Part shown: positions 1,345-63,700 of the stretch, piece after piece
How positions within the stretch are numbered: the first letter of the stretch is position 1
How the letters are laid out: each line of letters starts with the position of its first letter
Assembly: GCA_048539495.1 (NCBI GenBank)
Contig: JBLYPS010000003.1
Span: 31,486-95,485 of the forward strand
DNA: 64,000 nt
Direction of reading: 5' to 3'
From: Dehalococcoidia bacterium
Lineage (GTDB): Bacteria; Chloroflexota; Dehalococcoidia; SZUA-161; SpSt-899
Program-made: the position numbers and the translations under genes
Notes under the pieces: generated by a model
The model's database searches: none
Seen by the model: the letters and a program-made list of their open reading frames with translations, nothing else
Told to the model about the DNA's origin: nothing

Positions 1345-3834
1345 ATGACCGAGAAATATAATCCTCCAGAAATCGAAAAGAAATGGCAATCAAGGTGGGA
1401 AAAGACCCGACTCTACGCCACAAGCGAAGATAGCGACCGCCCCAAGCTCTACGAGCTGACCATGTTCCCCTATACCTCTGGTGACCTCCACATCGGACAC
1501 TGGTACGCTATGGCCCCGGCAGATGTCCATGCCAGATTCATGCGGATGAAAGGCTATAACGTGCTGCACCCGATGGGCTTCGATGCCTTCGGCCTCCCCG
1601 CGGAGAATGCGGCCATCGATCGGGATATCCATCCGCATACCTGGACGATGAAAAACGTAGAGAACATGCGTCGCCAGTTTCACACTATGGGAGCGGTCTA
1701 CGATTGGGATCGGGAGGTGGTTACCTGCTCACCGGACTACTACCGCTGGACGCAGTGGCTGTTTCTCAAGTTACATGAAGCGGGTCTGACCTATCGGGCT
1801 AAAGCCCCGGCCAACTGGTGCTCCAGATGCCAGACGGTGCTTGCCAATGAGCAAGTCACCGCCGAAGGCCGATGTGAGCGCTGCGGCACGGCGGTGATCA
1901 GGAAGGACTTAGAGCAATGGTTCTTCCGCATCACCAGGTATGCCGATGAGCTTATGCAGCATGAGGGTCTCGATTGGCCGGAGCAGGTCAAGACGATGCA
2001 GCGCAACTGGGTCGGACGGAGTGAGGGGGCTGAGATTTCCTTCAGCATCGAGGAATACGGTCTCGATGAAAAAGAGATTCGGGTATTCACCACCCGACCC
2101 GACACCACCTACGGTGTTACCTTCATGGTCCTGGCCCCGGAGCATCCCCTGGTGGAAAAACTCACCTCGCCCGAATATAAGGACCGGGTCGATGACTATG
2201 TGAACCGGGCTCGCCGCCAGTCGGAGATCGAGAGGCTCTCCACGGAGCGGGAGAGAACCGGACTCTTCATTGGTGCTTACGCCACCAACAGGCTGAATGG
2301 AGAGAAGGTGCCCATCTGGATCGCCGACTATGCGCTCTTAAGCTATGGCACCGGGGCGGTCATGGGCGTGCCGGCTCATGACCAGCGAGATTTCGAGCTG
2401 GCTAAGGAGTTTGGCATTCCGATAAAAGTAGTCGTTGCGCCTGATAGATGGAGTGGTGAGGAACTGGAGGAGGCCTACGAAGAGCCGGGCACAATGGTCA
2501 ATTCCGGCCCCTTTGATGGTCAGCCCAGCGAAGAGGGCAAGGATGCGATTGTCGCTTTCATGGAGGAAAACGGCTATGGCAAGAAGGCTGTAAGTTACCG
2601 GCTGCGCGACTGGCTCATCTCTCGTCAGCGTTACTGGGGTGCGCCGATCCCGATGGTTCATTGTCCCCGGTGCGGCATCGTGCCGGTGCCGGAGAAGGAT
2701 CTGCCGGTGCTCCTCCCCGAGGATGCCGAGTTTAAACCCACCGGAGAATCACCGCTCAAGTATTGCGAGCCCTTCGTCAATACCACCTGCCCCCGTTGCG
2801 GCAAGCCGGCACAGCGCGAGACCGATACCATGGATACCTTCGTGTGTTCTAGTTGGTACTTCCTGCGCTACTGCAGCCCGCAGCATGATGATGGGCCCTT
2901 CGATCCCCAGAGGCTGAAATACTGGCTCCCCGTAGATCTATACACCGGAGGCGTGGAGCATGCCACCATGCATCTGCTCTATGCCCGCTTCTTCATCAAG
3001 GCGCTGCGCGATATGGGGATAGTTGACTTCGGAGAATCCTTCATCAAACTTTTCAATCAAGGGAAGATTATCCGAGGGAGACAGAAGATGAGTAAGTCCC
3101 GCGGCAACGTCGTCAACCCCGATGAATACGTGGCCGAATCGGGGGCCGATGCCATGCGCGCTTATCTGATGTTCATCGGACCCTGGGAGCAGGGGGGAGA
3201 GTGGAACGATAATGGTCTGATCGGCATCACGCGATGGCTCAATAGAATCTGGAATCTGGTACTGGCTGAAACCGAAATCGTGTCCGTGGGCCGTGGCCCG
3301 TGTCCGGACACGGGGGAGGGACACGGGGGACGGACACGGGGGACGGACAAGGAGCTACGGCGCGTGACCCATCAAACCATCAAGAAGGTAAATCAAGACC
3401 TGGAGAGATTCCACTTCAACACCATGCTGGCGGCGCTGATGGAGTTTACCAATTACCTCGCCAGGCTTAAGGAAATATGTGCGGTCAAAGATAGCCCGGC
3501 CTGGAAGGAAGCCATTGATGCCTTGCTTCTGTTGCTGGCGCCGGCTGTCCCTCACCTGGCGGAGGAGCTCTGGGAGCGGACCGGCCACCCCTACAGCATA
3601 CACCATCAGCCATTTCCTGTCTGGCAGGAGGAACTGGTAGCCGAAGAGGAGTTCACCCTGGTGATCCAGATAAACGGGAAAGTTCGCGATAAGGTGTCTG
3701 TCCCGGTTTCTATCTCCGAGGCTGAGGTCAGGGAATTAGTCCTGAGCCGGGAGCGAATTAAGGCTCAAGTAAGGCACCCGATTGTCAGGGTGATATATGT
3801 GACGGGACGTTTGGTGAACATTGTGGTGAAGTAA
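1345..3834 (+). CDS. leuS: Leucyl-tRNA synthetase
   Basis: HIGH-type 'TSGDLHIGH' and 'KMSKS' motifs and a class I LeuS architecture. The start is set at the ATG encoding MTEKYNPPEIEKKWQ. A TATAAT box sits at 1330-1335. Confidence 0.95.
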   Translation: MTEKYNPPEIEKKWQSRWEKTRLYATSEDSDRPKLYELTMFPYTSGDLHIGHWYAMAPADVHARFMRMKGYNVLHPMGFDAFGLPAENAAIDRDIHPHTWTMKNVENMRRQFHTMGAVYDWDREVVTCSPDYYRWTQWLFLKLHEAGLTYRAKAPANWCSRCQTVLANEQVTAEGRCERCGTAVIRKDLEQWFFRITRYADELMQHEGLDWPEQVKTMQRNWVGRSEGAEISFSIEEYGLDEKEIRVFTTRPDTTYGVTFMVLAPEHPLVEKLTSPEYKDRVDDYVNRARRQSEIERLSTERERTGLFIGAYATNRLNGEKVPIWIADYALLSYGTGAVMGVPAHDQRDFELAKEFGIPIKVVVAPDRWSGEELEEAYEEPGTMVNSGPFDGQPSEEGKDAIVAFMEENGYGKKAVSYRLRDWLISRQRYWGAPIPMVHCPRCGIVPVPEKDLPVLLPEDAEFKPTGESPLKYCEPFVNTTCPRCGKPAQRETDTMDTFVCSSWYFLRYCSPQHDDGPFDPQRLKYWLPVDLYTGGVEHATMHLLYARFFIKALRDMGIVDFGESFIKLFNQGKIIRGRQKMSKSRGNVVNPDEYVAESGADAMRAYLMFIGPWEQGGEWNDNGLIGITRWLNRIWNLVLAETEIVSVGRGPCPDTGEGHGGRTRGTDKELRRVTHQTIKKVNQDLERFHFNTMLAALMEFTNYLARLKEICAVKDSPAWKEAIDALLLLLAPAVPHLAEELWERTGHPYSIHHQPFPVWQEELVAEEEFTLVIQINGKVRDKVSVPVSISEAEVRELVLSRERIKAQVRHPIVRVIYVTGRLVNIVVK
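3279..3352. repeat. In-frame intragenic tandem-unit palindromic insertion in leuS
   Basis: The sequence 'gtgtccgtgggccgtggcccgtgtccggacacgggggagggacacgggggacggacacgggggacggacaagg' encodes VSVGRGPCPDTGEGHGGRTRGTDKE. It lies between conserved LeuS segments and has the G-rich-core-plus-repeated-unit architecture. Confidence 0.6.
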
Positions 3835-3837
3835 CTT

Positions 3838-4101
3838 GACATTGTCACATTTCAATGTCATTGCGAGGAGCGTAAGCGACGAAGCAATCTCCAATGAAGA
3901 GATTGCTTTGCTTCGCTCGCAATGACAGAAAGAAGGTGATTGGTTACACTTTATCGGATGTTCCATTTTTAAGGGCTTGCTAGATTCGGAAATAAATGCC
4001 TACACAGTGAATTTTATAAGGGTTGAAAAGGCAAATTCGTATCTGTTTTTAGTGATTTTCACGGATAACGGGTGGAACATCCGCTTTAATGTGACAATGT
4101 C
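3838..4101. mobile_element. MITE-like element with 14-bp terminal inverted repeats and a central ~30-bp hairpin
   Basis: The terminal inverted repeats are 'gacattgtcacatt' (3838-3851) and 'aatgtgacaatgtc' (4088-4101). The internal hairpin pairs 'gtcattgcgaggagcgtaagcgacgaagcaatctc' with 'gagattgctttgcttcgctcgcaatgac'. A related copy is at 58921-59040. Confidence 0.55.
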
Positions 4102-4120
4102 AGGGTAATAAGGAGGTTTG

Positions 4121-5743: not shown

Positions 5744-5822
5744 TAGGCTGAAGCCTGTTAGGCTATTAGTAGGCTATTAGGCTCCTTCAGCCTTCAGCCT
5801 AATAACCTTCAGCCTAATACTG
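5744..5822. repeat. Family B palindromic repeat (GGCTGAAGG...TTAGGCTATTAGGC...CCTTCAGCC)
   Basis: The sequence is 'aggctgaagcctgttaggctattagtaggctattaggctccttcagccttcagcctaataaccttcagcc'. It overlaps the folC stop codon. Confidence 0.5.
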
Positions 5823-11290: not shown

Positions 11291-11340
11291 AGGGCTATTA
11301 GGCTGTAGGCTATTAGGCTAACAGCCTTCAGCCTAAAAGG
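11291..11340. repeat. Family B palindromic repeat
   Basis: The sequence is 'gggctattaggctgtaggctattaggctaacagccttcagcctaaaagg'. It overlaps the tyrS stop codon. Confidence 0.45.
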
Positions 11341-20160: not shown

Positions 20161-20372
20161 GGTTCATTTTTCCTACTATGTTCTTTATGTGATTGGCTCA
20201 AAAAATCTTCCATACCTATCCCAAATTTATTTTCAAAGCCCTTCTTTGCAATATCTTCATATTCACTGAAATTGGCAATAAACAAATCTAATAGGCTGGA
20301 AACACAATATTTACAACCACCGTCACACTCAAAAATTATCTCAATTACTTTTTGAGCTTCATCTTTTCTCAT
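20157..20372 (-). CDS. Small Cys-containing hypothetical protein
   Basis: The 71-aa ORF has the motif 'CDGGCKYC' and is translationally coupled to mod and the next ORF. Confidence 0.3.
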   Translation of the reverse strand: MRKDEAQKVIEIIFECDGGCKYCVSSLLDLFIANFSEYEDIAKKGFENKFGIGMEDFLSQSHKEHSRKNEP

Positions 20373-21483
20373 TTTCCGTCAAATCCTTTGAATTATGAAT
20401 GTCTAAAAGCCTTTTTCTGGTAACCTGAATGGCAAACTTGGATAAATCAGAGCCTATCCATTTTCTGCCTAATTTCTCTGCTGTTGCTAAGGTTGTGCCT
20501 GAGCCACAGAAGAAATCTGCAACGATGTCGCCGGGGTCCGTTGTAGCCATTAATAAAACTTGCAAAAGTCCCTCGGATTTTTGGGTCAGAAAGTTTAGAC
20601 ACTCAGCAGAAACATTTATGACAGGTTTTACATTAACTGTTAGTAGTTTGCTGTTATTCAAAACTAATGTGATTTTGTCCTGTAGCACATCTCGCAAAAG
20701 CACATCCGCATAATATCTTCCACTTGCATCCCTAAGAGAAGTAAAAAACGGTTTTTCGTAATAAACTCTTTCTTTTAGTTTATTAAATTTAGGGTTTGCA
20801 TTTTTAGAATAGAATAAAATAATATCATGCTTCTTAGGAAAATCGGCTTCTTTACTCGGGGCGCCCCCTGTTCTATAACACCATGATATCTCATTTCTAA
20901 AACCTAGCTTATTTTCTCCACCCGGTCCGAAAACTTCGTCCATCATCACCTTAACATAATGTCCCGCATGCCAGTCAAGGTGCACATAGATAGAACCATT
21001 TTCAGCCAATAATTCCCTCATCAAAACCAACCGCTCATACATATATTCGAGATAAGAAGCAATCCCACCGCTCCAGGTATCCTTATAAGCCCGCTCTTCT
21101 ATGATAGATGGCTCCTTTTCTATTGCTTCGTCTCCAATTTTTGTTCTTATCGTAAAATCTGAACCTGTGAAAAACGGCGGGTCAATGTAAATCAGATTTA
21201 TCTTCCCAACCCAGCCCTGTTTAATCAGAGAACTCATCACTAATTTGTTATCGCCCCAGATAAGAAGATTCTTCCAGTCCTTTGAATAATTGGCGGGATA
21301 CTCGTCTTCGGGGAAAAATGAAATCGTATATCCACCCTTAATTCTGGGCTTGTTTACTGTTTCAACAACCTGAAATGGGAGATTGGGTTTTTCTATCGGT
21401 TTCTTCTCCCCTTTTTCGTATCGGTCGTATTTTTCTGCCCAGAGCAGCTCTACGTACTTCTTGTTATCAGGCATCTTTATCAC
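20359..21483 (-). CDS. mod: Beta-class N6-adenine/N4-cytosine DNA methyltransferase (Type III Mod-like, compact)
   Basis: Motif IV 'IYIDPPFFTG' comes before motif I 'DFFCGSGTTLATAEKLGRKWIGSDL', which is the beta-class order. At 374 aa it is short for a Type III Mod. Confidence 0.8.
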   Translation of the reverse strand: MIKMPDNKKYVELLWAEKYDRYEKGEKKPIEKPNLPFQVVETVNKPRIKGGYTISFFPEDEYPANYSKDWKNLLIWGDNKLVMSSLIKQGWVGKINLIYIDPPFFTGSDFTIRTKIGDEAIEKEPSIIEERAYKDTWSGGIASYLEYMYERLVLMRELLAENGSIYVHLDWHAGHYVKVMMDEVFGPGGENKLGFRNEISWCYRTGGAPSKEADFPKKHDIILFYSKNANPKFNKLKERVYYEKPFFTSLRDASGRYYADVLLRDVLQDKITLVLNNSKLLTVNVKPVINVSAECLNFLTQKSEGLLQVLLMATTDPGDIVADFFCGSGTTLATAEKLGRKWIGSDLSKFAIQVTRKRLLDIHNSKDLTENEKR

Positions 21484-21611
21484 CCCTTAGCCTACCTGCA
21501 AAGATTATTGCACAATTCCTCCTGTTATTGCGAGCAAAGTGAAGCAAGATCATCAGGGGGATTCTCGCCCTGAAACCCCCTAAAGCGGTTGACGGTTCTG
21601 TTCGTTTGTGC

Positions 21612-24197: not shown

Positions 24198-27101
24198 TTA
24201 CTCCATTTCGCCCCAATTCTGGCCCAGTTTGGTCTCCACCTTAAGAGACACGCTAAGCTCCATTGCCGCTGACATGATCTCCTGTACTAGTCGTTTCATC
24301 AACTCGATCTCTGCCTGCGGCACCTCAAAAAGAAGCTCGTCATGCACCTGAAGGATCATCTTGCTCTTGAGACTCCTAATATCTATCTCGTTCTGGATGT
24401 TGATCATCGCCAGCTTTATGATGTCGGCAGCGGTGCCCTGGACCGGCATGTTTATGGCCATCCGCTCCGCCGCTTGCCGCACTTGATAATTGGAGGAATT
24501 AATCTCCGGGATATACCGCCTTCTTCCCATCACCGTTTGAACGTATCCTTTTTCAACCGCGTGCTGCTTGGTCAAGTTAACATAATCCCTGACGCCGCGG
24601 TATCTTTCGAAGTAGGCGTTAATAAAATCGGTCGCTTTCTGGCGGGAGAGCCCGGTGGCCTGTTCCAGGCCATAATCGCCCATACCGTAGATCACACCGA
24701 AATTCACCACCTTGGCTATTCGTCTCATCTCTGAGGTCACCTCGTATGTCTCCACGCCGAAGACCTGCGAGGCGGTGGCGGCATGGATATCCTCGTCGTG
24801 GGCGAAAGCGGCCAGGAGCCCGGGATCCTGCGATAGATGCGCCATAACGCGGAGCTCGATCTGGGAGTAATCCGCACTCAACAGCCAAGAGTCGAGAGTC
24901 GAGAGTCGAGAGTCGAGAGTCCCCCTCGCCCCCCGACTCCAGACTCCAGACTCCCGACTCCAGACTCCCTTTGGGGCGACGAAAGCCTGTCTGATCCGAT
25001 TTCCTATCTCAGTACGCACGGGGATATTCTGCAGATTGGGATCGCTCGATGATAAACGCCCGGTAGCGGTGACGGTCTGATTGAAATTGGTATGCACCCT
25101 TCCGGTCTCCGGATCGATGAGGGCTGGGAGGGCATCAACATAGGTTGATTTGAGCTTGGCGAGCTGGCGATACTCGATGATGTGCTCAATAGCGGGGTGC
25201 TCGCCCCGTAGCCCCTCCAGGACTGAGATATCCGTGGAGTAACCGCTCTTGGTCTTGCGCCCCGGGGTCAGCTTAAGCTCATCGAAAAGAATCCTCCCCA
25301 GTTGTTGGGTGGAGTTTATATTGAACTTATACCCCACCGACTCGTAAATCTCACCCTCGATCCTGGCCATCTCCATAAACATGACCTGCGACATATCCCG
25401 AAGCAAGCTAGTATCCAGAGCTATCCCATTCCTCTCCATCCGATATAAGACCGGAACCAGCGGCATCTCAACCTCGACGAAAAGATCCCACAACCCCTCT
25501 CTCTTCAGTTCTGCCTCCAGAAGTTGGCTTAGTCTACCCGTCATATCGGCATCGGCGCAGGCGTAATCGGCGGCTAGTGCAATGCTGACATCGGCCATAG
25601 AACCCTGTTTCGGTCCCGACCCGATGAGGGCGCTTATGGGGGTCATCTCAATGCCCAGTTTGCCGAAAGTGAGCTGCTTCAACCCTAGAGACTTCTCCCC
25701 CAGAAGATGCGCCGCGATCATGGTATCGAAGTTGATATGCTGCAATTCCAACCCGTGTTGCCAGAGAACGGTCATATCATACTTGGCATTGTGGGCTATC
25801 TTCGAAATAGCGGGGTCTATCATGATAGGCTTGAGTCTGGTAGTGATCTCGGATAGAGAGAGTTGACTAGTTGATAGTTGATAGTTGATAGTCGCTGGTC
25901 CCTCCCCACCCCAGACTGCCGACTGCTGACTGCTGACTGCCGACTGCCTGTGCCCGACGGGGATATACCAGGCCTTCGCCGGAGTCATCGAAAGAGAGAT
26001 GCCTACCAATGTCGTGTGTCTTGCCTCTTTGCCGGAGGTCTCCGTATCCACCACTAATGCCCCGGCTGTGGAGAGTTCCTCCACCAGTTCATTAAGGGCT
26101 TCGGAGGTAGCCACTATTTCATAAAAAGTCGAGAGTTCAGAAGGACGGGTATCTTGCCCGTCATCTCCAGTCAAGGGGAGGGGGACTCCAGACTCCAGAC
26201 TCCAAACTCCAGACTCGGATGTTGTCCCCGGCAGTTTGTCCAGGAGACTGAAGAACTCCAGCTCTCGAAACAGCGCGGTAACCGTGTCCCGCTTATAGCT
26301 GCTCACGCGGCAGGATGAGAGGTCGAGGCTTACCGGGACATCGGTGACGATGGTGGCTAACTTTTTGCTCTGTCGTGCCACTTCTTCATTGGACCGTAGG
26401 ATCTTTTGAATCCTGAGCGGGCTCACCTCGTCGATTCGTCGGTAGATTCCTTCCAGGCTGTCAAATTGCTGGATAAGCTTGACGGCGATCTTCTCTCCGA
26501 TACCGGCTACTCCAGGGATATTATCCGTCTGATCGCCTTTGAGGCCCTTCAGGTCGGCAAGCTGCTGTGGTCGGAGGCTGTATCGCTGCTGTACCGCTGC
26601 TTCATCGTAAAGTTGAGTGTCACTGAACGGGCGCCGGGGCCGGGGAAGAAGCACCTCGACACCGGGGGAGACAAGCTGCAGGGTATCGGTATCGCCGGTT
26701 ACGATGATAGAATAGATCCCCTGTGCGCTGGCCTGCTGGCTGAGAGCACCAAGAATATCGTCGGCCTCGTAGCCTTCCACCTCAAAGGCGAGGACGCCGA
26801 GGGCCTGGACCAGTTGGCGAACGACGGCGAATTGTGAGATGAGCTCGTCAGGCGCTTTGGGACGGTGCGCCTTATAATCCTGAAACTGAATATGCCTGAA
26901 GGTGGGAGCGGCGGTGTCGAAGGCGATTGCCCAGTGTGAGGGCTTAAACTCTTCGAGTGTCTTCAGGAGCATGCTTGCGAAGCCATAAACAGCCCCCGTT
27001 GGTTTTCCCTCCTTGGTCGAAAGTGCCGGCAGGGCATGGAAGGCGCGATGGATAAGGGCATGTCCGTCGAATAGGAGAAGCAGCGGTCTTTCTGTTGACA
27101 T
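24198..27101 (-). CDS. polA: DNA polymerase I
   Basis: A 5'-nuclease N-terminus, a 3'-5' exonuclease region and polymerase motifs ('DYSQIELR', 'QVHDEL') are present. At 967 aa it is enlarged by three in-frame repeat insertions. Confidence 0.9.
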   Translation of the reverse strand: MSTERPLLLLFDGHALIHRAFHALPALSTKEGKPTGAVYGFASMLLKTLEEFKPSHWAIAFDTAAPTFRHIQFQDYKAHRPKAPDELISQFAVVRQLVQALGVLAFEVEGYEADDILGALSQQASAQGIYSIIVTGDTDTLQLVSPGVEVLLPRPRRPFSDTQLYDEAAVQQRYSLRPQQLADLKGLKGDQTDNIPGVAGIGEKIAVKLIQQFDSLEGIYRRIDEVSPLRIQKILRSNEEVARQSKKLATIVTDVPVSLDLSSCRVSSYKRDTVTALFRELEFFSLLDKLPGTTSESGVWSLESGVPLPLTGDDGQDTRPSELSTFYEIVATSEALNELVEELSTAGALVVDTETSGKEARHTTLVGISLSMTPAKAWYIPVGHRQSAVSSQQSAVWGGEGPATINYQLSTSQLSLSEITTRLKPIMIDPAISKIAHNAKYDMTVLWQHGLELQHINFDTMIAAHLLGEKSLGLKQLTFGKLGIEMTPISALIGSGPKQGSMADVSIALAADYACADADMTGRLSQLLEAELKREGLWDLFVEVEMPLVPVLYRMERNGIALDTSLLRDMSQVMFMEMARIEGEIYESVGYKFNINSTQQLGRILFDELKLTPGRKTKSGYSTDISVLEGLRGEHPAIEHIIEYRQLAKLKSTYVDALPALIDPETGRVHTNFNQTVTATGRLSSSDPNLQNIPVRTEIGNRIRQAFVAPKGVWSRESGVWSRGARGTLDSRLSTLDSWLLSADYSQIELRVMAHLSQDPGLLAAFAHDEDIHAATASQVFGVETYEVTSEMRRIAKVVNFGVIYGMGDYGLEQATGLSRQKATDFINAYFERYRGVRDYVNLTKQHAVEKGYVQTVMGRRRYIPEINSSNYQVRQAAERMAINMPVQGTAADIIKLAMINIQNEIDIRSLKSKMILQVHDELLFEVPQAEIELMKRLVQEIMSAAMELSVSLKVETKLGQNWGEME
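24889..24970. repeat. In-frame heptamer-array palindromic insertion in polA (immediately before motif A)
   Basis: '(gagtcga)n' and 'ccccctcgcccccc' and '(gactcca)n' encode SRESGVWSRESGVWSRGARG just upstream of LLSADYSQIELR. Confidence 0.65.
25856..25950. repeat. In-frame tandem-heptamer insertion in the polA 3'-5' exonuclease region
   Basis: '(agttgat)n' and 'gctggtccctccccacccca' and '(gactgcc/gactgct)n' encode SAVSSQQSAVWGGEGPATINYQLSTSQLSL. Confidence 0.6.
26165..26217. repeat. In-frame repeat in the polA inter-domain linker
   Basis: 'ggggagggggactccagactccagactccaaactccagactc' encodes SGVWSLESGVPLPLTG. Confidence 0.55.
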
Positions 27102-35794: not shown

Positions 35795-36567
35795 CTTGTT
35801 CCTCCTAGTTTACCGATTATGATGATCAGAATCAGCGTCGCTACCTCGGAAAGCTCGATTATAGCACCATAGGTATCGCCCGTAAGTCCGCCGAGGCGTG
35901 AGCTGAGAGTTCTCGCCAGCAGAAAGCTGGTAACCCAAACCACAACCACCATCGCTACCCCGGCGTAACTCAGAAAAGCCGCTGCTGCAGCTACGGCGAT
36001 CACCGTTGCCATGCCCATCTTCAGCCAGCTCGCCTGCTTCTTGAACACCTGGCCCAGTCCCTCCTTCTTAGCGGAGGGGAAGGCAGTGATAGCGTAGGTA
36101 GCACTCCATCTACTCAGGGTAGGCATCAGCAGGAGCGCTGCCGCTCTCAACCCCACCGGCATGGTTATCAGCGAGATAACTTTAAGCAGGATGAGGCAGC
36201 ATGCCCCCACCACCCCGAACCCCCCCACCCGGCTATCGGCCATCACCCTGAGCCTTTCGGCCGCGGAGCTCCTCAAGGCAAACCCATCGCAGGTGTCCAT
36301 CAATCCATCGAGATGGAGCGCACCAGTGAAGAGAATAAGCGAAACGACCAGTAAGGCGCTCACGAGCAGCGGAGGCAGGAAGAGTCCCAGTAGCTGGTCG
36401 AGCCCCAACAGGATCGCCCCCAATATAAGCCCCACCAGCGAGAAGTAGCTTATCGAGCGGCCAATCCCGCTCTCACTGAAGCCTCGGCCTCCTGGGGCAG
36501 GGAATACGGTGAGAAACTGCCAGGCAGTCCAGAAACCCAAATCGTCTCCTCTCCGTTCAAGGTTCAA
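35773..36567 (-). CDS. cobS: Adenosylcobinamide-GDP ribazoletransferase (cobalamin synthase)
   Basis: The 264-aa polytopic membrane protein has a CobS-like profile 'LLVSLILFTGALHLDGLMDTCDG'. Confidence 0.8.
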   Translation of the reverse strand: MNLERRGDDLGFWTAWQFLTVFPAPGGRGFSESGIGRSISYFSLVGLILGAILLGLDQLLGLFLPPLLVSALLVVSLILFTGALHLDGLMDTCDGFALRSSAAERLRVMADSRVGGFGVVGACCLILLKVISLITMPVGLRAAALLLMPTLSRWSATYAITAFPSAKKEGLGQVFKKQASWLKMGMATVIAVAAAAAFLSYAGVAMVVVVWVTSFLLARTLSSRLGGLTGDTYGAIIELSEVATLILIIIIGKLGGTSWLGLYL

Positions 36568-36603
36568 GGTTCAAAGTTGCGGCTTGTTCCGAGCGCGGGC
36601 TCT

Positions 36604-40253: not shown

Positions 40254-41093
40254 TCAAGATTTAGTCTCTTCCAAAGACATGCAGGGAGCTACAAGCTTGT
40301 TAAGCATACCTTGTAACTCGTCGAGCACCTCCTCAAGAGGCAGCAATGATTCAACTTGCTGCTTCAAATCCTTTTCCCAGTAGCTCTTCAGTACCCCTGG
40401 GTCTCCCGGAAGAAAATCGCTCATAGATCGGAGGCAAAGGCCCTTATGTGCAAGCTTCTCGGCCAGCACTGCCCCCAGAAGCTCGAAGTTAAGCTGGGAA
40501 GAGTGCTCCCTTAATACTCTCCATACGTCGTAATAATCTCTGGATTTACCGCGTTCAAGCAAGCTTCGCATCTTCTCAGCAAGCAACTCTTCCAGTGGGT
40601 AGACCAGTACCTCTCGTTGCTGATCAGTAAAGGGGTCAGTTAACACTCTCCGATATTCAGGCTCAAGGCATAATGGTTCGTCAAAGCTCAAGTCCATATA
40701 AATCATACCCGGGTAGGACAAGGGGCCCAGGAACTGACTTCGGATGCGAGCATAACCATCTGTCTTATGAAGCATCTTAGTCGTAAGCTGTATCTGGGAC
40801 TCCTGTTCTACCTGGCGATACCATCCGTCAAGAGATTGCCTTAGCTCTTCTTTAGCCATGTCATGTCTCACCGTAAAGTCCAGGTCTTCCGAGTAACGCC
40901 AGTGCGAGAAATAGACTTTACGTAGGGCAGTACCTCCCTTGAATACCATCACCTCATTCAGCACTGGCACCTGTGATAGAGTTTTAAGCACCTCTGTAAG
41001 CACGTAGTCTTTTTCCAATATGCCTAAAGCTACTTTTTCGTGTTGGGCCATCCTCTGCAATTCGGCCTTGGATAACACTACTGCTCCTTCCAC
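40254..41093 (-). CDS. abiEii: AbiEii-family nucleotidyltransferase toxin (type IV toxin-antitoxin)
   Basis: The 'VFKGGTALRKVYFSHWRYSEDLDF' nucleotidyltransferase motif (DUF1814) is present. Confidence 0.75.
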   Translation of the reverse strand: MEGAVVLSKAELQRMAQHEKVALGILEKDYVLTEVLKTLSQVPVLNEVMVFKGGTALRKVYFSHWRYSEDLDFTVRHDMAKEELRQSLDGWYRQVEQESQIQLTTKMLHKTDGYARIRSQFLGPLSYPGMIYMDLSFDEPLCLEPEYRRVLTDPFTDQQREVLVYPLEELLAEKMRSLLERGKSRDYYDVWRVLREHSSQLNFELLGAVLAEKLAHKGLCLRSMSDFLPGDPGVLKSYWEKDLKQQVESLLPLEEVLDELQGMLNKLVAPCMSLEETKS

Positions 41094-41899
41094 TGTAAGA
41101 GTTCATTCTCCGAAACATTTACGATGATTTTCCATCGGTCAAGATATCTACCCTCGGTATTTGCCAGGGTATCAAGCGGGGCATATCCACTACTCATGCC
41201 ATCACGGAGAATGACAATAGCCTCATCTCTATCGGGGCTTAGCGTCTCCAGAAGGTAGCCTAACCGCTGGCTTACAGCTCTGTTTCCGCTCTTCCGTGCA
41301 TACTCAGCCAATTTCACAAAATCAAGCTCGTCGCGCCCATACCACAGTGCCTTAGCTACTTCTGCTACGCCGCCACAGTACCGTAATCGGTCAAGGCAAT
41401 CTACTATTGTTTTTTCAGGTTCGGAGATGTTAACCCCATGTTTATCCAAAATCACTTCGGTTTCTCCAAAGAATTTATGCTCAGACATATACACAAAGCG
41501 GTATGTTACTCCGGAAATCTCCAGAGCTGGCTTTGACTTGCGACGAGTTGAAGCTATGAAGACAGTCCGACTAACTTGTTCCGTATAGCCATAGTAATTG
41601 AGGGCACTGCGGAATCCAATATAGTAGGGGTTGATAAGATAGGAGGCAATTATGAATTCATGTTCAGTCCACTCACCTTCGCGTCCGGCTTCAAAGGGTA
41701 ATATGAGATATTTACCCCGCTCCATGCGTTGAAGCCAGCGTCGCTTAACCAGTCTGGATAACAGTCCGTGCAGTCCACTATTGCTAGTACCGTAGATTTT
41801 AGCAGCATCATCGAAGGTGAAAAGGCGCTTACCTTGACGGGTCAGCTCTGTCAAGAGATTGCTCCCTGTATCGCCAAGAGTTCTTATGTTTTGTGCCAT
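41078..41899 (-). CDS. abiEi: AbiEi-family antitoxin/transcriptional regulator
   Basis: The N-terminal wHTH region '...RLVKRRWLQRMERGKYLI' is typical of AbiEi. It overlaps abiEii by 16 nt. The start is probably MAQNIRTLG. Confidence 0.65.
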   Translation of the reverse strand: MAQNIRTLGDTGSNLLTELTRQGKRLFTFDDAAKIYGTSNSGLHGLLSRLVKRRWLQRMERGKYLILPFEAGREGEWTEHEFIIASYLINPYYIGFRSALNYYGYTEQVSRTVFIASTRRKSKPALEISGVTYRFVYMSEHKFFGETEVILDKHGVNISEPEKTIVDCLDRLRYCGGVAEVAKALWYGRDELDFVKLAEYARKSGNRAVSQRLGYLLETLSPDRDEAIVILRDGMSSGYAPLDTLANTEGRYLDRWKIIVNVSENELLQWKEQ

Positions 41900-42164
41900 A
41901 ATAGTTACCTCCGCCGTCATTATTATAGCACAAAACATCAACCATCATGGATGCTAAATGGGAGAAAGCTTAAACTAGCCCCTTGTCAGGGTGAACAATC
42001 CGTCATTTTGTTACCCCACCGAGTGCATTTGCTGCCTTGCAAGCCAAACGCTTTGATGCTAGAATCATTTTTGATAGTGACAGTTGCGTTAGATAGTTAG
42101 ACTAGAGGCCATTTTAAAAGTTCTACCTATTATAACCCCAACTCCAGAGGGAAGGAAGTTAAGC

Positions 42165-46926: not shown

Positions 46927-47349
46927 TTGCCGACCGTAAGTCAGTTGGTGCGTAAGGGGCGCCGGGAAATAAAAAAGAAGTCAAAGGTACCAGCTTTGCG
47001 GGTTTCCTATAGCTCCCTGAAGGGCAGGGTGACGCGGGGTAAGGGATCCCCACAAAAGCGCGGGGTGTGCGTTCAGGTTAAAACGGTAACGCCCAAGAAG
47101 CCCAATTCGGCACTGCGCAAGGTAGCGCGGGTTCGACTGACCAATGGTATAGAGGTGACGGCCTACATCCCCGGTGAAGGACATAACCTGCAGGAACACT
47201 CGGTAGTGCTGATTCGCGGGGGACGGGTGAAGGACTTACCCGGTGTCCGCTACCATATTGTTCGTGGCACCCTGGATACCGAAGGCGTGGTTGATCGGAA
47301 GAGTAGCCGGAGCAAGTACGGGGCAAAAAAACCTAAGGCTCGAAGCTAG
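46927..47349 (+). CDS. rpsL: 30S ribosomal protein S12
   Basis: '[11 protein letters not shown]...[11 protein letters not shown]' matches S12. Confidence 0.95.
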
Positions 47350-47413
47350 GTCCAACGGTTCAAGGTTCAACGGTTCAACAGTTACAAGTCCCAACCGTGA
47401 ACCATGAACCGTC
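47350..47413. repeat. Family D palindromic repeat (GGTTCAA-type units vs GAACCGT)
   Basis: The sequence is 'ggtccaacggttcaaggttcaacggttcaacagttacaagtcccaaccgtgaaccatgaaccgtc'. It lies between rpsL and rpsG. Confidence 0.55.
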
Positions 47414-50128: not shown

Positions 50129-50437
50129 ATGCCAAAACAAAAAATCAGGATCAAACTAAGGTCTTACGATTATCGGGCACTGGATCAATCGGCGGCTCAT
50201 ATAGTTGAGGCGGCGGAAAGCACCGGGGCTGCGGTGGTGGGGCCTGTGCCTCTACCCACCCATATCAAGAAGTTCTGCGTTATCCGCTCGCCGGTGATTG
50301 ATAAGGACTCTCGGGAGGAGTTCGAGATCCGCACTCATAAGCGATTGATAGATATACTCGATCCGACATCGAAGACGGTCGATTCCCTCACCCGCCTCAA
50401 TCTGCCCGCCGGCGTGAGCATCGAGATAAAGGTCTAA
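50129..50437 (+). CDS. rpsJ: 30S ribosomal protein S10
   Basis: '[18 protein letters not shown]' matches S10. It follows fusA directly, with no tuf in between. Confidence 0.95.
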
Positions 50438-50512
50438 TGGGTAGTGGGTAATGGGTAATGGGGGCTACGGGGTACCCCTATAACCTATGACCTATCACCT
50501 ATTACCCAGGAT
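50438..50512. repeat. Family C palindromic repeat ((GGGTAAT)n - GGGGTACCCC - (CTATNACC)n)
   Basis: The sequence is 'tgggtagtgggtaatgggtaatgggggctacggggtacccctataacctatgacctatcacctattaccc'. The rpsJ TAA stop lies in the adjacent 'ctaatggg'. Confidence 0.6.
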
Positions 50513-51851: not shown

Positions 51852-52096
51852 TCACCGAGAAGAACACCGACCTGATGACCCGGAACAAGTACGTTTTTGA
51901 GGTTATGAAAAGTGCTAATAAGGATCAGGTCAAAGCCGCAGTGGAGAAAGCCTTCAAGGTCACGGTTGTCTCGGTAAACACGGTCATGGTTCACAGCAAG
52001 CCCAGGGGCTACGGGAGGCTTAAAGGACACCGTCCATCCTGGAAGAAGGCCATTGTCACCCTTATGGAGGGAGATAAGATCGAGATATTTGGGTAA
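51818..52096 (+). CDS. rplW: 50S ribosomal protein L23
   Basis: '[14 protein letters not shown]' matches L23. The terminal Gly and TAA stop are encoded by the first GGGTAA unit of the downstream repeat. Confidence 0.95.
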   Translation: MHIYEVLRRPVITEKNTDLMTRNKYVFEVMKSANKDQVKAAVEKAFKVTVVSVNTVMVHSKPRGYGRLKGHRPSWKKAIVTLMEGDKIEIFG

Positions 52097-52172
52097 TGGG
52101 CAATGGGTAATGGGGTGTTACGCGGTACCCCTATAACCTATGACCTATAACCTATAACCTCGGATAAACATG
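52090..52172. repeat. Family C palindromic repeat
   Basis: The sequence is 'gggtaatgggcaatgggtaatggggtgttacgcggtacccctataacctatgacctataacctataacctcgg'. Confidence 0.6.
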
Positions 52173-58401: not shown

Positions 58402-58938
58402 ATGAATGAAAGAATTGATCCAGAGGGACTAAGCCTGACTGAGACGTTGGTTCATGTCAGACGAGTGGCCAAGACGGTGGGCGGAGGGCGAAAACTTTCC
58501 TTCAGTGCCCTGGTAGTGGTTGGCGATAATCAGGGTCATGTAGGCTCCGGCCTTGGCAAGGGCAAAGAAATTCCGGTGGCCATCGGAAAGGGGACAGCCG
58601 CAGCCAAGAAGAACCTTATTCGGGTGCCGATGAATGGGAGCACTATTACTCACGAGATAACTGCCAAGTTTGGCGCTGCTAAGGTCTTGCTCAAACCAGC
58701 AGCCCCTGGAACCGGAGTGATTGCCGGCAAGGCAGTCCGATCCGTGATTGAGTCCGCCGGGATAAAGGATATCCTGAGTAAATCGCTGGGCAGCACTAAT
58801 CCTATCAATGTAGTTCAGGCGACTATACGCGCGCTGAGCGAGCTAAAGGATCCGAAACGAGAGTCAAGAGTCCAGACTCCAGAGTCGAGAGTCAAGGAGG
58901 GAGGGGAACTCCAGAATCCACTTGACATTGTCAGATGA
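58402..58938 (+). CDS. rpsE: 30S ribosomal protein S5 with a repeat-derived C-terminal extension
   Basis: An S5 dsRBD and C-terminal domain are present. The tail '[28 protein letters not shown]' is encoded by a heptamer array (58858-58900) and the end of the MITE-like element. Confidence 0.9.
58858..58900. repeat. Heptamer array with G-rich core inside the rpsE 3' end
   Basis: The sequence is 'gagtcaagagtccagactccagagtcgagagtcaaggagggagggg'. Confidence 0.55.
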
Positions 58939-59040
58939 GGTGGTAACGATGAATTTCTTTCTGTCATTGCGAGCGAAGCGAAGCAATCTCGGTGGCAGGG
59001 AGGAGATTGCTTCGTCGCCTTCGGCTCCTCGCAATGACAT
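58921..59040. mobile_element. Partial copy of the MITE-like element (family A hairpin plus one terminal inverted repeat)
   Basis: 'cttgacattgtcag' matches the left terminal repeat of the 3838-4101 element. The hairpin pairs 'gtcattgcgagcgaagcgaagcaatctc' with 'gattgcttcgtcgccttcggctcctcgcaatgac'. It supplies the rpsE stop codon. Confidence 0.55.
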
Positions 59041-59060
59041 GGGAATGGGGCAAGAGAAGA

Positions 59061-59264
59061 ATGGAGATATCTAAACTGCGCATTACCTGGAAGAGGAGCG
59101 CTATCGGTTATCCCAGCAATCAAAGGAGGGTGGTCAAGGCCCTAGGATTTCGCTTGTTGAACGACGTAGTTGAGCATAATGATTCGGCACAAATTCGCGG
59201 CATGATCAGGAAGATCCGGCATCTGGTCGAGGTGGAAGAAATCGGACGGGAAGGTGAGGCTTGA
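59061..59264 (+). CDS. rpmD: 50S ribosomal protein L30
   Basis: 'LRITWKRSAIGYPSNQRRVVKALGFRLLND' matches L30. The start is at the ATG at 59061, immediately after the hairpin. Confidence 0.9.
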   Translation: MEISKLRITWKRSAIGYPSNQRRVVKALGFRLLNDVVEHNDSAQIRGMIRKIRHLVEVEEIGREGEA

Positions 59265-61056: not shown

Positions 61057-61127
61057 ACGGGTTCAAGGCTCAGAGTTCAAGGTTCAAGGTTGAACCGTGA
61101 ACCGTGAACCGTAAACCGTGAACCGCA
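61054..61127. repeat. Family D palindromic repeat ((GGTTCAA)n / (TGAACCG)n)
   Basis: The sequence is 'tgaacgggttcaaggctcagagttcaaggttcaaggttgaaccgtgaaccgtgaaccgtaaaccgtgaaccg'. The secY TGA stop is its first unit. Confidence 0.6.
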
Positions 61128-61889: not shown

Positions 61890-62636
61890 ATGGGTATCAT
61901 AATTAAGTCGCCAAACGAAATAAATATAATGCGCCAGGCAGGACGGATCGTAGCAACTATTCTCGCTGCCTTGAAAAGCGAGGTGAGGTCGGGCATAAGC
62001 ACCGGGATGCTGGATGCTATTGCCACACGGATGTTTCAAGAGTACGGGGCACGGGCGTCGTTCAATGGGTACCGAGGTTTTCCGGCCTCTATCTGCACAT
62101 CAGTGAACGAAGAGGTGGTTCATGGCCGGCCGGGGGGGAGAGTCCTTCAAGAAGGCGATCTGATTGCCATCGATGTGGGAGCGATATATAATGGTTTTCA
62201 GGGAGATGCGGCGATAACCGTGGGAGTGGGCCAGATAAGCCCCGAGGCGGAAAGTCTCATTGATACCACTCGCCGGTCTCTGGAAGCGGGTATCGCGGCA
62301 GCCCGCGAAGGGGCTCGTCTGAGCGACATTTCAGCGGCGATCCAGTTATGTGCCGAGTCCAATGGTTTCTCGCCGGTAAGACAATATGTGGGGCACGGGA
62401 TCGGTCGACAGATGCACGAAAAACCGGAGATTCCCAATTTCGGGCCGCCAGGCAAAGGGCCGATATTGAAACGAGGCATGACTCTGGCCCTGGAACCAAT
62501 GATCAACGCCGGCGGCTGGGCCACCAAGGTGCTCCCCGATCGCTGGACGGTGGTCACGGCCGATGGCAGCCTTTCGGCACATTTCGAGCATACCATCGCT
62601 ATCACCAATGGTGCAGCGGAGATACTGACTGTGTGA
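61890..62636 (+). CDS. map: Methionine aminopeptidase type I
   Basis: 'CTSVNEEVVHG' and 'DIGAIYNGFQGD' match metal-binding motifs of the enzyme. Confidence 0.9.
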   Translation: MGIIIKSPNEINIMRQAGRIVATILAALKSEVRSGISTGMLDAIATRMFQEYGARASFNGYRGFPASICTSVNEEVVHGRPGGRVLQEGDLIAIDVGAIYNGFQGDAAITVGVGQISPEAESLIDTTRRSLEAGIAAAREGARLSDISAAIQLCAESNGFSPVRQYVGHGIGRQMHEKPEIPNFGPPGKGPILKRGMTLALEPMINAGGWATKVLPDRWTVVTADGSLSAHFEHTIAITNGAAEILTV

Positions 62637-62716
62637 TGGGTGATGGGTAATAGGTAATGGGTGATGGGGGTTACGGGGTGCCCCTATAACCTATAACCTA
62701 TGACCTATAACAAGGA
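62634..62716. repeat. Family C palindromic repeat
   Basis: The sequence is 'tgatgggtgatgggtaataggtaatgggtgatgggggttacggggtgcccctataacctataacctatgacctataacaagg'. The map TGA stop is its first unit. Confidence 0.6.
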
Positions 62717-63022: not shown

Positions 63023-63136
63023 ATGAAAGTCCGAGCTTCGGTTAAGCCCCGCTGTAACAAATGCAAGATTGTGAAACGTAAGGGCGTGGTGCGGGTTATT
63101 TGCTCTAATCCCAGGCATAAGCAGAGCCAAGGATGA
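63023..63136 (+). CDS. rpmJ: 50S ribosomal protein L36
   Basis: It encodes [37 protein letters not shown] (37 aa). It is not in the ORF track because it is under 60 aa. Confidence 0.9.
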
Positions 63137-63235
63137 TAGGTGATAGGTGATAGGTGATGGGTGATGGGTGATGGGGGTTACGCCGTACCCCTATTACCTA
63201 TTACCTATGACTTCTGGGGTAATGGGTAAAAGGAG
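63134..63235. repeat. Family C palindromic repeat ((GGTGATA)n/(GGTGATG)n ... GGGGTTACGCCGTACCCC ... (CTATTACC)n)
   Basis: The sequence is 'tgataggtgataggtgataggtgatgggtgatgggtgatgggggttacgccgtacccctattacctattacctatgac'. The rpmJ TGA stop is its first unit. Confidence 0.6.
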
Positions 63236-63630: not shown

Positions 63631-63700
63631 GGAGGTGATTGGTGATTAGTGATTGGTGATTGGGGTTACGAGGCTCTAATTACCAATCACTAATTACCTT
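63631..63700. repeat. Family C-like palindromic repeat ((GGTGATT)n ... (TAATTACC)n)
   Basis: The sequence is 'aggaggtgattggtgattagtgattggtgattggggttacgaggctctaattaccaatcactaattacc'. Confidence 0.55.

Follow-up and report, generated by a model that had tools for sequence, protein, structure and literature searches.

A probable MITE with a REP-like hairpin and a nested second MITE between leuS and a small conserved gene in a Dehalococcoidia bacterium

The segment that separates leuS from a conserved 83-aa gene in the 64,000-nucleotide stretch of Dehalococcoidia DNA analysed here (the window) very probably consists of two MITEs, MITE-A and a second element, MITE-B, nested in it, both non-autonomous DNA transposons. 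In the same reading a copy between rpsE and rpmD is an older MITE-A. MITE-A is an ordinary small non-coding transposon of a family common in Chloroflexota. Since MITEs are well known, the main value of the analysis lies in the annotation and in the explanation of three local oddities. The spacer downstream of leuS is long because two mini-transposons are stacked in it, the elements lie exactly at gene ends because their target can include a stop codon, and the abnormal tail of ribosomal protein S5, with rpsE and rpmD spread apart, is encoded by repeat DNA. MITE-A further shows, in a specific instance, that a transposon generating target duplications can carry REP-like doublets, a finding relevant to the spread of CGTC-type REPs.

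MITE-A and its insertion site at leuS

A preliminary description, made from the sequence alone, had placed an element of 264 bp at 3838-4101 with perfect 14-bp terminal inverted repeats. The two repeats, gacattgtcacatt (3838-3851) and aatgtgacaatgtc (4088-4101), are exact reverse complements. Exact complementarity covers 14-15 nt and was extended by a repeat finder to 20 nt at 90% (3832-3851 / 4088-4107). By our estimate, ~0.07 perfect 14-nt inverted pairs within 300 nt of each other are expected by chance in 64 kb. The core of each terminal repeat, TGACA-T-TGTCA, is a palindrome in its own right. A scan of the window for TTGACATTGTCA returned exact matches at 3836 and 58922, and a minus-strand match at 4092 that differs at 1 position.

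The MITE nature of the segment was upheld, and its limits were revised. MITE-A extends from 3835 to 4104 on the plus strand (270 bp with the nested MITE-B, 135 bp without it), excluding the duplications, and has the termini CTTGACATTGTCA(CATT) and (AATG)TGACAATGTCAGG. A search for target-site duplications, which the preliminary description had proposed, identified a perfect 4-bp GTAA at both ends. The left GTAA (3831-3834) contains the leuS stop codon TAA (3832-3834), in keeping with the earlier placement of a full copy exactly at the leuS 3' end. Immediately after the right GTAA (4105-4108) come the Shine-Dalgarno sequence AAGGAGG and the ATG (4121) with which the conserved 83-aa gene begins. 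When 3835-4108 was taken out, the remaining sequence read GTGAAGTAATAAGGAGGTTTGATG, which comprises stop codon, Shine-Dalgarno sequence and start codon. The only ORFs in MITE-A are one of 43 aa and one of 76 aa that runs on the opposite strand through the hairpin. No Rfam family was identified for the region, either at the gathering threshold or at permissive E-values. An assembly artefact is excluded because three other assemblies carry the window sequence (L001 and L002 at 100%, L265 at 99.9%).

Empty sites were sought in relatives. In four relatives, with LeuS proteins 88, 84, 82 and 77% identical, the same small gene still lies downstream of leuS, and the spacers measure 28, ~10-25, 57 and 60 nt, compared with 286 nt from the leuS end (3834) to the start of the 83-aa gene (4121) in the window. 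The hairpin word and TGACAnTGTCA were absent from 52 kb of DNA from these four relatives. The nearest empty site belongs to a relative whose LeuS is only 88% identical and whose spacer sequence is different, and no exact pre-insertion allele was seen. The target duplication, the empty sites in relatives and the copies with the same termini at unrelated sites elsewhere all support the classification of the segment as a MITE.

A locus in which the small protein is 92% identical (L271, BBPF01003615.1) was considered as a closer empty-site allele and rejected, as it carries a different insertion at the same junction. There (212-905), ~600 bp encode a small ORF (~355-495) and a PIN_3 protein, possibly a toxin-antitoxin pair, and ~100 nt from the 3' end of leuS are repeated after the insertion. 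The leuS|83-aa-gene junction is an insertion hot spot. Within leuS, a 13-nt tandem repeat (CGGACACGGGGGA x3.5, 45 nt) at 3305-3349 corresponds to 15 extra LeuS residues (829 aa vs ~814 in relatives). This suggests that a repeat has expanded in frame within an essential gene.

In the sequence of events that we propose, MITE-A would have inserted into a GTAA holding the leuS stop, and a 4-nt staggered cut followed by repair would have duplicated the GTAA. Because of this duplication leuS keeps its stop codon and the 83-aa gene keeps its ribosome-binding site. Later, MITE-B, with CGGATGTTCCA ends, would have inserted into the right subterminal part of MITE-A with duplication of 6 bp (CTTTAA). We infer that the insertions are tolerated passengers here and not functional parts. 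They are predicted to add a very stable RNA/DNA hairpin between co-oriented genes.

MITE-A relatives in other genomes

Contigs of one genome per species were scanned with the pattern TGACANTGTCA-N5-35-GTCATTGCGAG, which matched at least 116 loci compared with ~8 expected by chance. The preliminary description had allowed for a one-off palindrome with no additional copies in the genome; besides these family loci elsewhere, the 64-kb window itself holds two MITE-A copies. Among the 116 loci listed, 92 were from Chloroflexota and 4 from Acetothermia. The Chloroflexota matches listed include 32 contigs from one Anaerolineales MAG, 14 from another, 10 from an Anaerolinea MAG, 11 from a Chloroflexota MAG and 4 from Dehalococcoidia. 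Most matches outside the Chloroflexota and Acetothermia, e.g. those in Bradyrhizobium, look like chance co-occurrence. For many of the matches listed the distance to a contig end is ~90-130 nt, a pattern characteristic of an assembly-breaking repeat, and the family is abundant enough to break the assemblies of Anaerolineales MAGs.

The matches listed include 33 complete copies of 121-359 bp with the structure NTAN | (C/T)TTGACA(A/T)TGTCA ... TGACA(A/T)TGTCAA(A/G) | NTAN, where the bars separate element and duplication. The duplication is a perfect 4-bp one in 17 copies, matches at 3/4 positions in 7 and retains the central TA only in 9. With the central TA fixed, a perfect duplication is expected by chance in 1 of 16 cases, compared with 17/33 seen. 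Almost all perfect duplications are CTAN/NTAG, and the GTAA at leuS departs from the CTAN preference. MITE-A copies inside one MAG are up to 98.8% identical, and such near-identical copies reflect recent activity.

The stop codon of a long ORF forms the last three bases of the duplication in 10/34 complete copies, compared with 6.8% of all NTAN sites in the same loci. Elements lie exactly at gene ends because an NTAA or NTAG target holds a stop codon, which the duplication regenerates. Selection against insertion inside genes is enough to explain the enrichment.

Several copies vary internally. In the Chloroflexota MAG Dive96_bin3.112 (L160, L208, L228, L204) a minisatellite with a 20-nt unit, ACCTGTGCCCCGAACGGGGT, is present in 4-7 copies and sits in one REP arm of some MITE-A copies. 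In L228 the terminus together with the REP head (CTTGACAATGTCACATTTGTCATTGCGAG) is repeated four times in tandem. The Anaerolineales MAG H6_556 (L175, L188, L199, L211, L217, L230) has MITE-A variants of 154, 172 and 177 bp, which differ only by extra 18- or 23-nt mini-hairpins at a single site within the long REP unit, flanked by GCGA(CGA) and (CGA)AGCAATC. REP-like units of other phyla vary at the same position.

Literature searches on MITEs in Chloroflexi or on IS5-type MITEs produced nothing specific. Searches by sequence or peptide (GTCATTGCGAG and variants, CHCEERSDEAI, FARNDK) produced unrelated primers or nothing, and RepRanger 2025 held no matching sequence. A description of the MITE-A family was not found in the searchable literature.

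Correia/NEMIS elements of Neisseria are bacterial MITEs mobilised in trans by DDE transposases. Like MITE-A, they are noncoding elements in the 100-300 bp range with terminal inverted repeats, a short TA-containing duplication and many copies; both are mostly intergenic, often co-transcribed, fold as a long hairpin, and can supply stop codons or extend reading frames. Correia elements have 26-bp repeats and a TA duplication, whereas MITE-A has TTGACAWTGTCA ends, each of them a palindrome, and a 4-bp NTAN duplication. MITE-A also differs from them in its Chloroflexota/Acetothermia hosts and in its REP-like doublet core. The proposed mobilising enzyme of MITE-A is a DDE-type transposase acting in trans, which would bind to the palindromic termini and make cuts staggered by 4 nt at (C)TAN.

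The cognate transposase with the same terminal repeats that the preliminary description had suggested looking for was not found in the window, where 20 ORFs were compared with Pfam. Among the 116 family loci listed there were neither terminus pairs 0.6-3.5 kb apart that enclose a transposase nor a recurrent transposase ORF. A scan of viral contigs for the MITE-A terminus gave only chance-level matches. The IS5 family (IS5/IS427 groups), IS701, IS1380 and ISH3 make 4-bp duplications. The IS5 target is a TA-centred YTAR, to be compared with the CTAN/NTAG of MITE-A. Judged by its duplication length and target sites, MITE-A may belong to the IS5 family, an assignment offered as a lead only. No insertion sequence with TTGACAWTGTCA ends was found in the window, the 116 family loci listed or the viral contigs, and we know of no IS5-family-like member with such ends and of no parent insertion sequence. 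The window also encodes an AbiEii/AbiEi toxin-antitoxin pair (40254-41938, minus strand).

The REP-like hairpin and competing explanations

An imperfect hairpin had been described inside the element, and the repeat finder confirmed it at 3856-3927. It forms a REP-like inverted heterodimer on the plus strand, in which a long unit (3856-3891; TGTCATTGCGAG-GAGCGTAAGCGAC-GAAGCAATCTC) and a short inverted unit (3899-3927) are separated by a loop (3892-3898). With up to 1 mismatch, GTCATTGCGAG occurs 5 times in the window (3857, 3916 on the minus strand, 58963, 59028 on the minus strand, and 21524) compared with 1.1 expected, and 0/100 shuffles reached 5. GTCATTGCGAG and GAAGCAATCTC are found on both arms of the hairpins at 3856-3927 and 58962-59039, and both words are far commoner in the window than in shuffles.

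A decayed single unit, GTTATTGCGAGCAAAGTGAAGCAAGATC, is located at 21524-21551 on the plus strand, where 23/28 positions match the unit consensus, just upstream of a DNA methyltransferase start. The weak fragment of the element previously placed at 21505-21545 is related to it, as a lone decayed hairpin unit and not as a MITE copy. An N6/N4 DNA methyltransferase is encoded at 20359-21483 on the minus strand, and a consensus TTGACA-17-TATAAT promoter at ~21603 adjoins the decayed unit.

Units were defined as GTCATTGCGAG and GAAGCAATC separated by 4-24 nt, and viral contigs yielded at least 120 such stretches. In BLASTN against plasmids, only the hairpin part matched, on a few plasmids of cyanobacteria and methanotrophs that carry no annotation for it; BLASTN of the element against phages gave no match. 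Among 178 distinct units, GTC is preceded by T in 94 and by C in 76 (T/C in 170), and the variable insert ends in C in 174. The tail after ...GCAAT is CCAG in 34/178 units and mostly CTC or CCC otherwise. A terminal stem of 4 bp or longer is formed by 20% of the inserts of at least 10 nt, compared with 0.7% of shuffles. All four window units have a TGTC tag, and the tail of the window units is CTC. The stem begins with AT, but only ATTGC/GCAAT pair, and a GA/GAA internal loop and a variable inner mini-hairpin follow. REP-like units occur singly or as inverted pairs, usually of one short and one long unit, as in both window copies and in many viral and genome loci. A hammerhead or K-turn identity was rejected, since only the GA/GAA tandem mismatch is shared and the other core nucleotides are absent.

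In viral contigs L007, L010, L019, L033, L040, L094 and L096, single REP-like units often immediately precede a Shine-Dalgarno sequence with its start codon. There are several units per contig, and L050 has four tandem units with a 33-nt period.

CGTC-tagged REPs, as characterised by Di Nocera, De Gregorio and Rocco (2013, PMC3733652), have a stem of 8-9 bp beginning A-T/T-A, a loop of 4-5 nt and a tail that is usually CCA. The same paper presents them as mostly inverted dimers, often heterodimers, found in many phyla with no dedicated transposase. The hairpin unit is like them in the unpaired CGTC/TGTC, the stem that starts with AT, the unequal inverted dimers and the spread over many phyla, and it may share their short tail, which reads CCA in many copies. 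Their stems are perfect over 8-9 bp with 4-5-nt loops, whereas the unit described here has a 5-bp outer stem and an inner mini-hairpin, often GCGAAGC. Because of this 5-bp outer stem and the internal loop the unit is termed REP-like and not a proven superfamily member. It is a separate cross-phylum module, which we regard as related to the CGTC-tagged REP superfamily. In Bradyrhizobium (L129, L138, L139, L218) a GTCATTGCGAG-type doublet has a canonical CGTC-type unit with a perfect stem, TGTCATTCCCCGCGAAGGCGGGGAATCCAG, ~30 nt away, and the shared head, tail and length suggest that the two are variants of one superfamily. The short form (9+4+9) has the length of the canonical CGTC unit that adjoins it in L129.

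Such a core could also mean that the element is REPIN-like, in which case a RAYT/IS200-type tyrosine (HUH) transposase would mobilise a REP doublet in single-stranded form and the outer repeats would be incidental. The core is an inverted REP-like doublet that also occurs solo or as a doublet in many phyla without outer repeats, such doublets are the mobile unit of REPINs, and CGTC-type REP dimers embedded in longer palindromes are on record in PMC3733652. REPINs and the REP-like core have in common the inverted arrangement of two REP units, the long hairpin that these form and the lack of autonomy. We nevertheless regard this explanation as very unlikely. REPINs have a GTAG tag, no flanking duplication and a single-copy RAYT gene, whereas the tag here is (C/T)GTC and MITE-A has outer terminal repeats and a 4-bp duplication. 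HUH transposition makes no target duplication, but units bounded by the outer repeats have a 4-bp one in most complete copies as well as at leuS, which excludes single-strand HUH transposition for the unit that these repeats delimit. No Y1 transposase domain was detected among the 20 window ORFs scanned, and CGTC-type REPs are reported not to be associated with RAYT genes.

More improbable still is a native cis-regulatory region, in which the palindromes would be operators of a dimeric regulator or hold a TTGACA -35 box and the hairpin would be an attenuator or stabiliser. Each terminus is of the palindrome type bound by dimeric helix-turn-helix proteins and contains a perfect TTGACA, the region folds far better than shuffles (-101.5 kcal/mol, z = -6.6), and both copies lie between co-oriented genes. 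However, relatives that lack the region keep both genes, and many other genomes have the same sequence, flanked by target duplications, beside genes of no relation to these. Scans for promoters and terminators yielded nothing beyond weak matches at chance level. Both TTGACA motifs face inward, and they were rejected as promoters because there is no -10 box at 16-18 nt.

With the element taken as a terminal-repeat MITE, a wider proposal can be made, although we think it rather unlikely to hold. CGTC-type REP doublets, in Chloroflexota and Acetothermia at least, would ride in a DDE-moved terminal-repeat MITE that makes 4-bp duplications. Since the heads of the REPs (TGTCATTG) are similar to the half-sites (TGACATTG / TGTCA) that make up each palindromic terminus, one enzyme might recognise both. 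If true, a shared enzyme would link two bacterial repeat classes that are treated as separate.

MITE-B and the rpsE/rpmD copy

The preliminary description treated the leuS segment as one 264-bp element with an AT-rich interior. The analysis resolved it into a 135-bp MITE with an unrelated 129-bp MITE nested in it, and the AT-rich segment is the nested one. MITE-B (3955-4083, 129 bp, 39% G+C) has perfect 11-bp termini, CGGATGTTCCA starting at 3955 and TGGAACATCCG ending at 4083. Its 6-bp duplications are CTTTAT on the left (3949-3954) and CTTTAA on the right (4084-4089). An intact 135-bp copy in L215, the single-cell genome of Dehalococcoidia SAG AH-958-J08, aligns over its full length with nt 1-128 of the leuS copy at 88%, and the AT-rich 160 nt had no match among the 116 MITE-A loci listed. 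After removal of 3955-4089 the leuS copy measures 143 nt with duplications, the same length as L215, and the two are colinear from end to end. MITE-B is assigned to a nested position in the right subterminal part of MITE-A because it has its own termini and duplications and because its removal restores this colinearity.

A metagenome scan for the MITE-B termini with ends 90-120 nt apart returned 12 loci. AT-rich elements with the same ends account for 10/12, and the remaining two were rejected as GC-rich chance matches. One of the 12, L265, is the window locus itself. L258 contains a 129/129 identical MITE-B copy at a different locus, with TTTCAT on both sides, and other relatives have the perfect 6-bp duplications TTATAA and ATGGAA. 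Two short-read contigs begin inside MITE-B, as expected because it is a repeat. L258 also contains a single REP-like unit (480-515) with a GCAC-GAA-GTGC insert, 40 nt from the identical MITE-B copy, and the contig is probably from the window's organism (same G+C, 0.52).

That the whole segment is one 264-bp MITE to which the AT-rich part belongs is almost certainly wrong, for although the segment folds as a single long hairpin with nested inverted repeats, the AT-rich 129 bp have termini and a flanking 6-bp repeat of their own, recur identically at another locus without MITE-A and in relatives with perfect 6-bp duplications, match none of the MITE-A loci listed, and leave a sequence colinear with intact 135-bp copies when removed.

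A related copy had been described at 58921-59040, at the rpsE stop. Its relationship and position were borne out, but it is not a small partial copy, as it retains 127 of ~135 bp. This second MITE-A copy spans 58921-59047 on the minus strand, and 104/120 aligned positions (87%) are identical to the leuS copy. Only the far terminus is lacking. The intact terminus, CTTGACATTGTCA, is at 58921-58933, and the REP-like heterodimer is at 58962-59039. The other end finishes with ...CATGGGAATG (59047) without a terminal repeat, and this copy was also aligned with L215.

The rpsE stop codon TGA (58936-58938) lies inside the second copy, as had been stated, and the last 5 codons of S5 plus the stop are encoded by it. 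The gene rpmD starts at 59061 or possibly at an in-frame ATG at 59034, in the hairpin arm of MITE-A, which a gene caller chose for rpmD in a near-identical strain. Relatives whose S5 is 87% identical have rpsE and rpmD either overlapping by 8 nt or separated by 1 nt; here the two genes of the ribosomal protein operon have been pulled ~120 nt apart. Alignment with relatives showed that the bases after CATGGGAATG, GGGCAAGAGAAGAA, are what remains of the ancestral 3' end of rpsE. In place of the codons that formerly specified EELAKR there are now 63 nt of a heptamer-repeat element plus the MITE, so that S5 has lost its native last 13-16 residues (13 in L269, 16 in L268) and gained 23 foreign ones. 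The insertion is fixed in strain L270, whose S5 is 99% identical.

The sequence GGGCAAG to the right of the rpsE copy was considered as a decayed terminus and rejected, since it is the relic of the original rpsE 3' end. No target duplication was recognisable around this copy, which points to an old, rearranged insertion. The proposed history would include an older MITE-A between rpsE and rpmD that lost one end and encodes the S5 tail and stop.

The window also contains arrays of 4-5 tandem heptamers, e.g. (TAATGGG)4-GGCTACGGGGTACC-(CCTATAA)4, often as an inverted pair around a G-rich centre. They are located at 5759-5819, 11293-11320, 24888-24968, 25861-25948, 26184-26216, 36555-36578, 47348-47383, 50435-50506, 52090-52160, 58860-58919, 61060-61125, 62633-62711, 63134-63172 and 63634-63663. 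The majority are found between genes for ribosomal proteins and some within a 967-aa ORF, and the array at 58860-58896 accounts for most of the codons of the foreign S5 C-terminus. These arrays look like a further repeat family with heptad arms.
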